Shown: positions 3,001 to 6,000 of the stretch, one piece after another | Layout: the number at the start of each line of letters is the position of its first letter | How positions within the stretch are numbered: the stretch's first letter is position 1 | Position numbers: made by a program | Source of the DNA: a virus | Lineage: Duplodnaviria; Heunggongvirae; Uroviricota; Caudoviricetes | Virus record (IMG/VR): IMGVR_UViG_2870479586_000001 | Location: 1-58,638 of that record | Reading direction: 5' to 3' (one strand) | DNA: 58,638 nt

Positions 3001-6000
3001 TCGGATGTAGTGAACTTTGTTGTGGGTAGAACGCAGGATTTTGCAGGGAGTGCCGTGGTGGTCGACGTACCAGGTGTTAGGAAAAATGATTCTGAACATT
3101 TTTACACCTCAGTTGGACGATGTTGAAATTTGCTGCTTTGAGGCCATCACAATCCCCATTGTTTGTTCTTAAGTTCGATCTCCTCCTGGCAACTTGCACA
3201 AGTCCGACAACCCTGAACGACCAGGCGTCTTCGTTCATCTATCGGATCGCCACACTCACAACAATGAGTGGCAGATATAGCCTGGTGGTTCAGGCGGCGC
3301 ATTTTTATTGCTGTGTTGCGCTGTAATTCTTCAATTTCTGATGCTGAATCAATGATGTCTGCCATCTTCCATTAATCCCTGAATTGTTGGTTAATACGCT
3401 TGAGGGTGAATGCGAATAATAAAAAAGGAGCCTGTAGCTCCCTGATGATTTTGCTTTTCATGTTCATCGTTCCTTAAAGACGCCGTTTAACATGCCGATT
3501 GCCAGGCTTAAATGAGTCGGTGTGAATCCCATCAGCGTTACCGTTTCGCGGTGCTTCTTCAGTACGCTACGGCAAATGTCATCGACGTTTTTATCCGGAA
3601 ACTGCTGTCTGGCTTTTTTGATTTCAGAATTAGCCTGACGGGCAATGCTGCGAAGGGCGTTTTCCTGCTGAGGTGTCATTGAACAAGTCCCATGTCGGCA
3701 AGCATAAGCACACAGAATATGAAGCCCGCTGCCAGAAAAATGCATTCCGTGGTTGTCATGCAGCCTCCCGACGGGCAAGAATCCTTGAGCCGAACGCCAT
3801 CAACTCTCCACGATCAACGGTCGTAAAGTGGCAGTGTGTACGGGGGTATGGGTGCCAGATAATGAGCATCGAGCCTTTATTATTTCCACTGACGGGTTTC
3901 TCAGTGAGTGGGTTAATAAATGCCAGTCGTCCTGCCGTGATGAATCTGACCTCACTGGCGGTTTGTATCGCTTCATGAAACCATCCGACAGATGTGTCAG
4001 CAGGCAATAACATTACACATCCCACACTACTGAATTTGTTTTCAGTGGCTGCCTTTTTCACAAAAGGGGAAATATTGCTGTATGGTGGATTCAACCAGAC
4101 ATAACCAGAGGCATATCCCATTGCTTCAGGCCATGAAGTGGTTAATGTGTTCTGCTCCTGTGAGATAAAAAGCCGACATAGTCGGTTTTTTTCGCTGGCG
4201 GCAGCATCAAGTTGAAAAACGAACTCTGCATTAAGCGCAGCAAAAATCTCTGGTGGTGTGCGCCAGCTGTCGCGATGTTCGGCAGGAGTATTGCTTCCGG
4301 TGAAATCAGTCATACAGCCCCCGTTTATTATTTATCTCCTCAGCCAGCCGCTGTGCTTTCAGGGGATTTCGGATAACAGAAAGGCCGGGAAATACCCAGC
4401 CTCGCTTTGTAACGGAGTAGACGAAAGTGATCGTGCCTACCCGGATATTATCGTGAGGATGCTTCATCGCCATTGCTCCCCAAATGCAAAACCAATTTCA
4501 GCTAGTGCCTCGTCCATTTTTTCGATGAACTCCGGCACCATCTCGTCAAAACTCGCCATGTACTTTTCATCCCGCTCAACCACGACATAATGCAGGCCTT
4601 CACGCTTCATACGCGGGTCATAGTTGGCAAAGTACCAGGCATCTTTTCGCGTCACCCACATGCTGTACTGCACCTGGGCCATGTAAGCCGACTTTATGGC
4701 CTCGAAACCACCGAGCCGGAACTTCATGAAATCCCGGGAGGTAAACGGGCATTTCAGCTCAAGGCCATTGCCGTCACTGCATAAACCATCGGGAGAGCAG
4801 GCGGTGCGCATACTTTCGTCGCGATAGATGATCGGGGATTCAATAACATTTACGCCGGAAGTGAACTCAAACAGGGTTCTGGCGTCGTTCTCGTACTGTT
4901 TTCCCCAGGCCAGCGCTTTAGCGTTAACTTCCGGAGCCACACCGGTGCAAACCTCAGCCAGCAGGGTGTGGAAGTAGGACATTTTCATGTCAGGCCACTT
5001 CTTTCCTGATCGGGGCTTTGCTATCACGTTGTGAACTTCTGAAGCGGTGATGACGCCGAGCCGTAATTTGTGCCATGCATCATCCCCCTGTTCGACAGCT
5101 CTCACGTCGATCCCGGTACGCTGCAGTATAATGTCCGGTGTCATGCTGCCACCTTCTGCTCAGTGGCTTTCTGTTTCAGGAATCCAAGAGCTTTCACTGC
5201 TTCGGCCTGTGTCAGTTCTGACGATGCGCGAATGTCGCGGCGAAATATCTGGGAACAGAGCGGCAATAAGTCGTCATCCCATGTTTTATCCAGGGCAATC
5301 AGCAGAGTGTTAATCTCCTGCATGGTTTCATCGTTAACCGGAGTGATGTCGCGTTCCGGCTGACGTTCTGCAGTGTATGCGGTATTTTCGACAATGCGCT
5401 CGGCTTCATCCTTGTCATAGATACCAGCAAATCCGAAGGCGAGACGGGCACACTGAATCATGGCTTTATGCCGTAACATCCGTTTGGGATGCGACTGCCA
5501 CGGCCCCGTGATTTCTCTGCCTTCGCGGGTTTTGAATGGTTCGCGGCGGCATTCATCCATCCACTCGGTAACGCAGATCGGATGATTGCGGTCTTTGCGG
5601 TAAATCCGGCATGTGCAGGATTCATTGTCCTGCTCAAAGTCCATGCCATCAAACTGCTGGTTTTCATTGATGATGCGGGACCAGCCATCAACGCCCACCA
5701 CCGGAACGATGCCGTTCTGCTTGTCAGGGAAGGCGTAAATTTCTTTCGTCCACGGATTAAGGCCGTACTGGTTGGCGACGATCAACAATGCGATGAACTG
5801 CGCATCGCTGGCATCACCTTTAAATGCCGTCTGGCGAAGAGTGGTGATCAGTTCCTGTGGGTCGACAGAATCCATGCCGACACGTTCAGCCAGCTTCCCA
5901 GCCAGCGTTGCGAGTGCTGTACTCATCCGTTTTATACCTCTGAATCAATATCAACCTGGTGGTGAGCAATGGTTTCAACCATGTACCGGATGTGTTCTGC

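Follow-up and report, generated by a model that had tools for sequence, protein, structure and literature searches.

Does a very short open reading frame (ORF) that recurs in the early left operon of lambdoid prophages encode a peptide of its own, or is it a by-product of its neighbours and of the frame annotated across it? The question is raised by a stretch of 58,638 nucleotides (nt) of tailed-phage DNA (Caudoviricetes; IMG/VR record IMGVR_UViG_2870479586_000001, positions 1 to 58,638), referred to below as the window, which holds two copies of a 27-codon ORF. A first-pass annotation of this DNA had proposed that the ORF is a real, conserved early gene for a small membrane peptide, possibly toxic to the host. 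We consider it likely that the ORF is a genuine small gene: its product would be a membrane peptide with a single helix, produced early from pL through translational coupling, and the gene would also relay ribosomes to the downstream Orf61 core. The presence of the ORF in phage lambda itself, its overlap with the frame annotated as orf61 or as the Orf61 of 93 amino acids (aa), and its restriction to lambdoid phages of Escherichia are additions to that earlier account.

Both copies lie on the minus strand. Copy A (3676..3759) translates to MTTTECIFLAAGFIFCVLMLADMGLVQ* and is identical to an ORF of the lambda genome (NC_001416, complement 30925..31008); its surroundings correspond to the exo-xis block of the lambda pL operon. 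Copy B (49015..49098) translates to MTTTECIFLAAVFIFCVLMLADMGLVQ* and belongs to a degraded lambdoid remnant at thrW. The two differ at 2 nt, a synonymous G>T at position 12 and a G>T at position 35, the latter responsible for the single replacement, G12V. In both copies the TGA of the upstream gene and the ATG of the peptide share the tetranucleotide ATGA, and at the other end the peptide's own TGA is shared in the same way with the ATG of a downstream gene of 71 codons, the Orf61 core. The upstream genes differ: a phage N6-adenine methyltransferase, Dam (3756..4313, minus strand; Pfam PF05869, 2e-56; TIGR01712), precedes copy A, whereas lambda orf63 (DUF1382; 49095..49286, minus strand) precedes copy B. 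The second copy with its one substitution, the overlaps of copy A at start and stop and the change of upstream gene, all claimed in the first-pass annotation, are borne out.

Evidence that the ORF is a protein-coding gene comes first from the pattern of substitution. We assembled 327 copies, representing 41 haplotypes, from IMG/VR, GTDB genomes, metagenomes, GenBank phages and the window; some contigs were sampled twice, which inflates copy counts and leaves counts of distinct events unaffected. Across this sample 30 distinct substitutions were found. Read in the 27-aa frame (codons 2-27), 14 are synonymous and 15 non-synonymous, giving an omega of 0.33 (p 0.003, or 0.006-0.014 with transitions weighted 2-5 fold), and the changes fall at codon positions 1, 2 and 3 in the proportion 8/6/15. 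The third sense frame, which carries no annotation, yields 7 synonymous and 21 non-synonymous changes (omega 0.81, p 0.39), and the frame of the 93-aa extension yields 6 and 22 (omega 1.07, p 0.63); for this last frame omega was about 1.0-1.5 and changes were fewest at its own third codon positions. Counted as copy-occurrences, synonymous changes in the 27-aa frame outnumber non-synonymous ones by 428 to 51. The adjacent 71-aa gene, in the same loci, has an omega of 0.29. Purifying selection is therefore seen in the frame of the peptide and is absent from the annotated frame that overlaps it. Furthermore, most of the peptide replacements are conservative and keep its hydrophobicity (T3A, F8L, G12V, I14V, F15L, V26I and V26A).

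The ORF is intact in 314 of the 327 sampled copies, and three more carry Q27stop, which leaves a peptide of 26 aa. Four are disrupted: one has lost 14 nt, one carries an IS66 insertion, and two, each known from a single low-coverage metagenome contig, lack 1 nt and the stop codon, respectively; the remaining six are loci in which a DpdA-like gene stands in place of the peptide ORF. The ATGA overlaps are preserved in the Dam context and with several alleles of orf63. Conservation also extends far beyond the two copies of the window, as the first-pass annotation had suggested checking: the 84-nt sequence occurs at 4260 sites in 3144 of 5426 complete E. coli genomes, well beyond what chance would give, and the peptide in 176 phage records, including lambda, 434, HK630, 933W, VT2-Sakai and many other Shiga toxin (Stx) phages, in all but one with at least 92% identity. 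A tblastn search of the peptide against phages returned no relative below 92% identity except one chance match. Numerous matches to GTDB assemblies of unrelated genera, which made up most of that scan, were rejected as natural distribution: assemblies of such genera as Shewanella, Pseudomonas, Bradyrhizobium, Paenibacillus, Kitasatospora and Oceanobacillus hold lambda-type DNA, the longer contigs show the A7 frameshift peculiar to lambda (see below), and contamination with lambda control DNA is almost certainly the source.

The composition of the peptide is that of a single transmembrane helix, in agreement with the membrane character first proposed for it. After a short acidic and polar N-terminus (MTTTE) come about 20 hydrophobic residues; the highest Kyte-Doolittle mean over 19 residues is 2.33 in copy A and 2.57 in copy B, the grand average of hydropathy (GRAVY) is 1.62, and the two copies rank first and third in hydrophobicity among the 194 ATG-initiated ORFs of 22-35 aa in the window. 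There are two acidic residues (E5 and D22), two cysteines and no lysine or arginine, so that the positive-inside rule suggests no orientation. Profile searches of the peptide against Pfam and PHROGs returned no family, and the sole NCBIfam match, to MtrF, was sub-threshold (13.8 bits against a cut-off of 25).

Initiation signals, as judged from the sequence, favour the peptide ATG over the rival start. In the Dam context a GGGAGG Shine-Dalgarno (SD) sequence, noticed at the outset, is found in the 3'-terminal part of dam (3764..3769, minus strand), 4 nt ahead of the ATG of copy A, and its predicted duplex with the anti-SD has an energy of -10.3 kcal/mol. The corresponding value in the orf63 context is -5.6 kcal/mol, copy B having only GAGAGA… at this place. 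At the ATG from which the 93-aa form is read the value is -2.6 to -3.8 kcal/mol and there is no SD, and at the ATG of the 71-aa gene it is -3.9 kcal/mol. Because this last SD is weak, the 71-aa gene probably depends on termination-reinitiation at the ATGA. Together with the selection on its frame, these signals support the earlier placing of a real, conserved and coupled small ORF in the early-left (pL) operon.

We propose the following course of events. The 84-nt ORF would be a protein-coding gene of the delayed-early pL operon in lambda-like Escherichia phages. Having completed the gene upstream (orf63, or the Dam that replaces it), ribosomes may re-initiate at the overlapping ATGA, aided in the Dam context by the strong GGGAGG. 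The 27-residue product would most likely insert in the inner membrane as one helix. Termination at the second ATGA would then bring the ribosome to where the 71-aa Orf61 core begins, a start almost devoid of an SD of its own; since this start would be reached through the second ATGA, the small gene would both encode a peptide and relay translation.

It might be argued that relay is all that the ORF does, namely that an 80-nt insertion is kept open so that ribosomes reach the second ATGA while the peptide itself is functionless. The weak SD (-3.9 kcal/mol) and the ATGA overlap at the 71-aa start are what such a device would call for, as is the organization of the whole block as a chain of ATGA-coupled ORFs, and in both junctions read in which the small ORF is missing an SD precedes the core start itself (GAGG in the DpdA loci, GGAGG in Mulock, a Klebsiella phage). 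Natural losses point the same way, the peptide being dispensable in Escherichia sp. E1V33 and in DpdA-context phages. In E1V33 a 14-nt deletion after ATGACAA removes peptide codons 3-7 and fuses the coupled ATG, preceded by a GGAGG SD, to the Orf61 frame (MTISSGGLHIL…); the upstream gene there encodes a 355-aa protein with a DGQHR motif. However, a pure relay would be under selection against stops and frameshifts alone, and an omega near 1 would be expected, whereas the observed value of 0.33 (p 0.003-0.014) resembles that of the neighbouring protein gene. Replacements are, moreover, mostly hydrophobic-for-hydrophobic, and the extreme hydrophobicity of the product would be left as an unexplained coincidence. 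We therefore hold it unlikely that the ORF is a relay and nothing else. A further natural loss was found in one E. coli assembly, in which an IS66-family element sits a few bases into the 27-aa ORF and creates a spurious 100-aa 'hypothetical protein' with 125 member sequences; this protein was at first a candidate for a natural mosaic junction, and was rejected as such once the insertion was recognized.

A second alternative is the one found in reference annotations, according to which Orf61 is a 93-aa protein (lambda orf61, 933W L0070, Phi24B vb_24B_7c) whose N-terminal 22 residues come from this interval, and the 27-aa ORF is a chance frame. In lambda the 27-codon ORF lies wholly within annotated orf61 (30839..31024), in another frame. 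In Stx phages Orf61 is annotated with 93 aa (933W L0070) and is treated as such in the exo-xis literature (PMC8614690); the opening 22 residues of that form, MHFSGSGLHILCAYACRHGTCS, result from reading this interval in the +2 frame, beginning with an ATG at 3743..3745 (minus strand) within peptide codons 5-6 and continuing into the core as MHFSGSGLHILCAYACRHGTCS-MTPQQ…. Besides its use for lambda, 933W and in that literature, this reading has in its favour that gene callers frequently produce the 93-aa form (a protein cluster of 1695 members), that PHROG 303 covers all 93 residues, and that in E1V33 the 14-nt deletion puts the Orf61 frame behind a coupled ATG that has a GGAGG SD. Against it, the frame shows no purifying selection (omega 1.0-1.5) and its ATG has no SD. 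AlphaFold2 models of the 93-aa form assign a predicted local distance difference test (pLDDT) score of 40-52 to residues 1-20 and of 73-91 to the core, in agreement with PMC8614690. In RefSeq/PGAP annotation the gene is the 71-aa form, and no feature is placed on the 84 nt.

The comparison of homologues is also at odds with the 93-aa form. Homologues of the 71-aa core in phages of Klebsiella, Vibrio, Erwinia and Enterobacter, with 29-47% identity (33-47% for those of Klebsiella and Vibrio), align from residue 1, and four distant ones start MTPEE… or MNIVN…. In three Klebsiella phages an ATGA joins the Orf61 homologue straight to a DNA methylase gene upstream and no small ORF intervenes; in one of these contexts, that of Mulock, GGAGG stands ahead of the methylase/Orf61 ATGA. 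A small number of Escherichia loci from metagenomes have a DpdA/TGT-like gene in place of the peptide ORF and the first six Orf61 codons, and Orf61 there starts MTIEHNNALRS, with its own GAGG. Since the distant homologues and the DpdA variant all start at the internal methionine, the 71-aa start is ancestral and the 93-aa form not; the 27-codon ORF is, in consequence, an 80-nt insertion between two ATGA junctions, specific to lambdoid phages of Escherichia. Some 'divergent' 71-aa relatives in the protein database were set aside, as the two clusters concerned consist of frameshift-ridden assemblies.

Lambda adds a complication of its own, having a run of seven A residues (A7) where other lambdoid phages have six (A6; window 3595..3600), so that its 71-aa gene is frameshifted. 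The A7 run is also present in modern re-sequencing of lambda. Lambda 'orf61' is accordingly a composite of the neutral +2 frame over the 27-aa ORF, the first 22 codons of the 71-aa gene and a frameshift tail, and the truncated look of its product has already been remarked upon (PMC8614690). On balance we regard the annotated reading as very improbable. Least credible of all is that an antisense ORF (MSASISTQNMKPAARKMHSVVV…), or some non-coding element of one strand or the other, accounts for the conservation. One antisense frame has its wobble positions in common with the peptide frame and shows a mild synonymous excess (omega 0.45, p 0.03), but this is weaker than in the sense frame and expected from the shared positions; the antisense ATG is lost through C66T in 10 copies, the part of the frame downstream is wholly different between the Dam and orf63 contexts, and neither promoter-like matches (3 against 1.8 expected by chance, with one weak match on the opposite strand, 3753..3782, directed away from the ORF) nor RNA folding of the interval (z-score -0.11, no stable fold and no Rfam match) stands out. 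An RNA element is thus no competitor for the coding reading.

Several observations nevertheless weigh against a genuine membrane peptide gene. Both phage and genome searches confine the peptide family to Escherichia lambdoid phages and show no distant homologues. Divergence is shallow (at least 92% identity), the selection test uses 29 events, and some metagenomic singletons may be sequencing errors. RefSeq/PGAP currently makes no call for the ORF. With no basic residue the topology of the peptide is not predictable, and the E1V33 deletion and the DpdA-context variant show it to be dispensable, which matches the rest of the exo-xis block. Finally, a review of lambda ribosome profiling lists as new ORFs in the block only one of 7 aa and one of 31 aa (PMC8614690). 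Translation of the peptide, like its membrane insertion, relay role and any physiological effect, is something we infer.

The peptide is not new to sequence databases. Exact matches are present in GenBank and UniRef (e.g. UniRef A0A0A2SGE8), on about 981 contigs; older automatic annotation must therefore have called the ORF. It figures there only as a 'hypothetical protein' in some entries, and we found no family or paper devoted to it; a sequence-string search of the searchable literature, including the small-gene supplements of Sakai ribosome profiling, did not find the peptide. Its 90%-identity cluster also lists two unrelated 428-aa glycosyltransferase-like proteins, evidently a clustering artefact.

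Published mutants of orf61 are affected as well. In a lambda 'orf61' frameshift mutant one C was deleted in CTTCATATTCTGTGTG[C]TTATGC, and phage development after induction was delayed (PMC4195576, Table 1 for the mutation). The deleted C maps to peptide codon 18, upstream of the ATG of the Orf61 core, and the phenotype of this mutant counts in favour of the gene. In Δorf61 derivatives of lambda and Phi24B the annotated orf61 sequence was swapped for an 87-nt scar (PMC6213356), and the 27-codon ORF was therefore removed too. A more ambitious proposal can be built on these facts: the peptide would be a young gene of Escherichia lambdoid phages, arisen as the 80-nt insertion between ancestrally ATGA-coupled genes (a methylase or orf63 on one side, orf61 on the other), that tilts the lysis-lysogeny or induction decision at the inner membrane, and the published 'orf61' phenotypes would then be largely due to it, especially in lambda with its frameshift-truncated core. 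As a whole this proposal is speculative, and we would sooner expect it to fail than to hold.

What the peptide might do in the membrane can be suggested with low confidence only. Early in lytic development it may bind a protein of the host inner membrane, modulate it and so add to the mild 'pro-lytic' phenotypes credited to orf61. A toxin role, raised in the first-pass annotation, is one of several possibilities; with no basic residues, no sign of an antitoxin and no promoter of its own, a pore-forming toxin seems, again tentatively, less likely than such modulation.

The surroundings of the two copies deserve a brief description. The exo-xis block has the order exo, orf60a, orf63, 'orf61', orf73 (TraR-like), ea22 … xis, int, and the peptide ORF is part of its chain of ATGA-coupled ORFs. 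The window holds two lambdoid elements in tandem at a tRNA-Thr gene (thrW), beside proA (1369..1444, 1459..2622 and 47000..58638). Prophage A, which carries copy A, is apparently complete and inserted next to the older remnant at the same tRNA-Thr. This remnant is ridden with insertion sequences (IS) and comprises int, IS3, ea22, TraR, the Orf61 core, orf63, orf60a, exo, bet, gam and a truncated P; it occurs by itself in related strains. DNA-modification genes have a hot-spot in the slot that separates orf60a/orf63 from the Orf61 core; this slot is occupied by Dam here, by a DpdA/TGT-like gene in some gut-metagenome loci, by cytosine or adenine methylases in Klebsiella phages and by the 355-aa DGQHR-motif protein, possibly DndB-like, in Escherichia sp. 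E1V33. In every junction read, the DpdA context excepted, the slot gene is ATGA-coupled to the next gene.

On the minus strand the Orf61 core occupies 3464..3679 (MTPQQENALRS…) beside copy A and 48803..49018 beside copy B. It frequently bears the NCBI name 'cell division protein ZapA', an identity that is probably wrong, its sole support being a sub-threshold match to Pfam ZapA (E 0.014, 16 bits against a cut-off of 23.8). The end of the core gene is itself ATGA-coupled to a 31-aa ORF (3372..3467, minus strand; MNMKSKIIRELQAPFLLFAFTLKRINQQFRD). Lambda exo-xis ORFs of 7 aa (orf2311) and 31 aa (orf2313) are known from the ribosome profiling of Liu et al. 2013, as summarised in PMC8614690, and the 31-aa ORF is probably orf2313. 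It runs straight through a terminator-like hairpin (3425..3443) and T-run, and translation through this hairpin could modulate termination before orf73.

The gene matters for several reasons. Lambda serves as the reference among temperate phages, and Shiga toxin is carried by its Stx relatives; the exo-xis block affects prophage induction and hence toxin release. If our reading is correct, the orf61 frameshift (PMC4195576) and the deletions (PMC6213356) also destroyed the peptide gene, and the phenotypes need re-assignment. The reference annotation of orf61 would also be wrong, the 61-aa form of lambda and the 93-aa form of Stx phages both mixing a neutral frame with the true 71-aa core, and over half of the complete E. 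coli genomes would harbour a new small membrane peptide.

The closest known relative by position is lambda orf61, or Stx Orf61 (PHROG 303). The peptide ORF shares with it the same DNA in the same pL exo-xis block, overlapping the first 22 codons of the 93-aa form, and the phenotypes of the two are inseparable in the published mutants. In contrast to Orf61, the peptide uses another frame, and the Orf61 core is a soluble 71-aa protein of three or four helices that starts downstream. The orf2311 and orf2313 of lambda are likewise very short ORFs of this block, the 31-aa ORF also being coupled by ATGA to the gene upstream; the 27-aa ORF differs from them in being strongly hydrophobic and outside the summarised list of profiled ORFs, in which it would be masked by the orf61 annotation.

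Beyond the phage, E. coli has a set of small single-helix inner-membrane proteins, such as AcrZ, MgtS, MgrB, KdpF and SgrT, that modulate larger membrane proteins. The predicted peptide resembles these in size (about 20-50 aa), in its one hydrophobic helix, in having no enzymatic domain and in being missed by gene callers, whereas it is phage-encoded and operon-coupled, has no basic flanks and shows no sequence similarity to any of them. Type I toxin peptides (Hok/Gef, Ldr, TisB, Ibs, ShoB and DinQ) are also short and hydrophobic, and like them the peptide could perturb a membrane; unlike them it has no basic C-terminal residues, no antisense RNA antitoxin or promoter of its own in evidence, and a place inside a polycistronic early operon. 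Finally, termination-reinitiation overlaps of the ATGA or TGATG type occur in the trp operon and in many phage operons, and the 27-codon ORF has their features, ATGA at both ends and a weak SD at the downstream start. What distinguishes it from other ORFs that serve translational coupling is that here the bridging ORF is under constraint at the amino-acid level.

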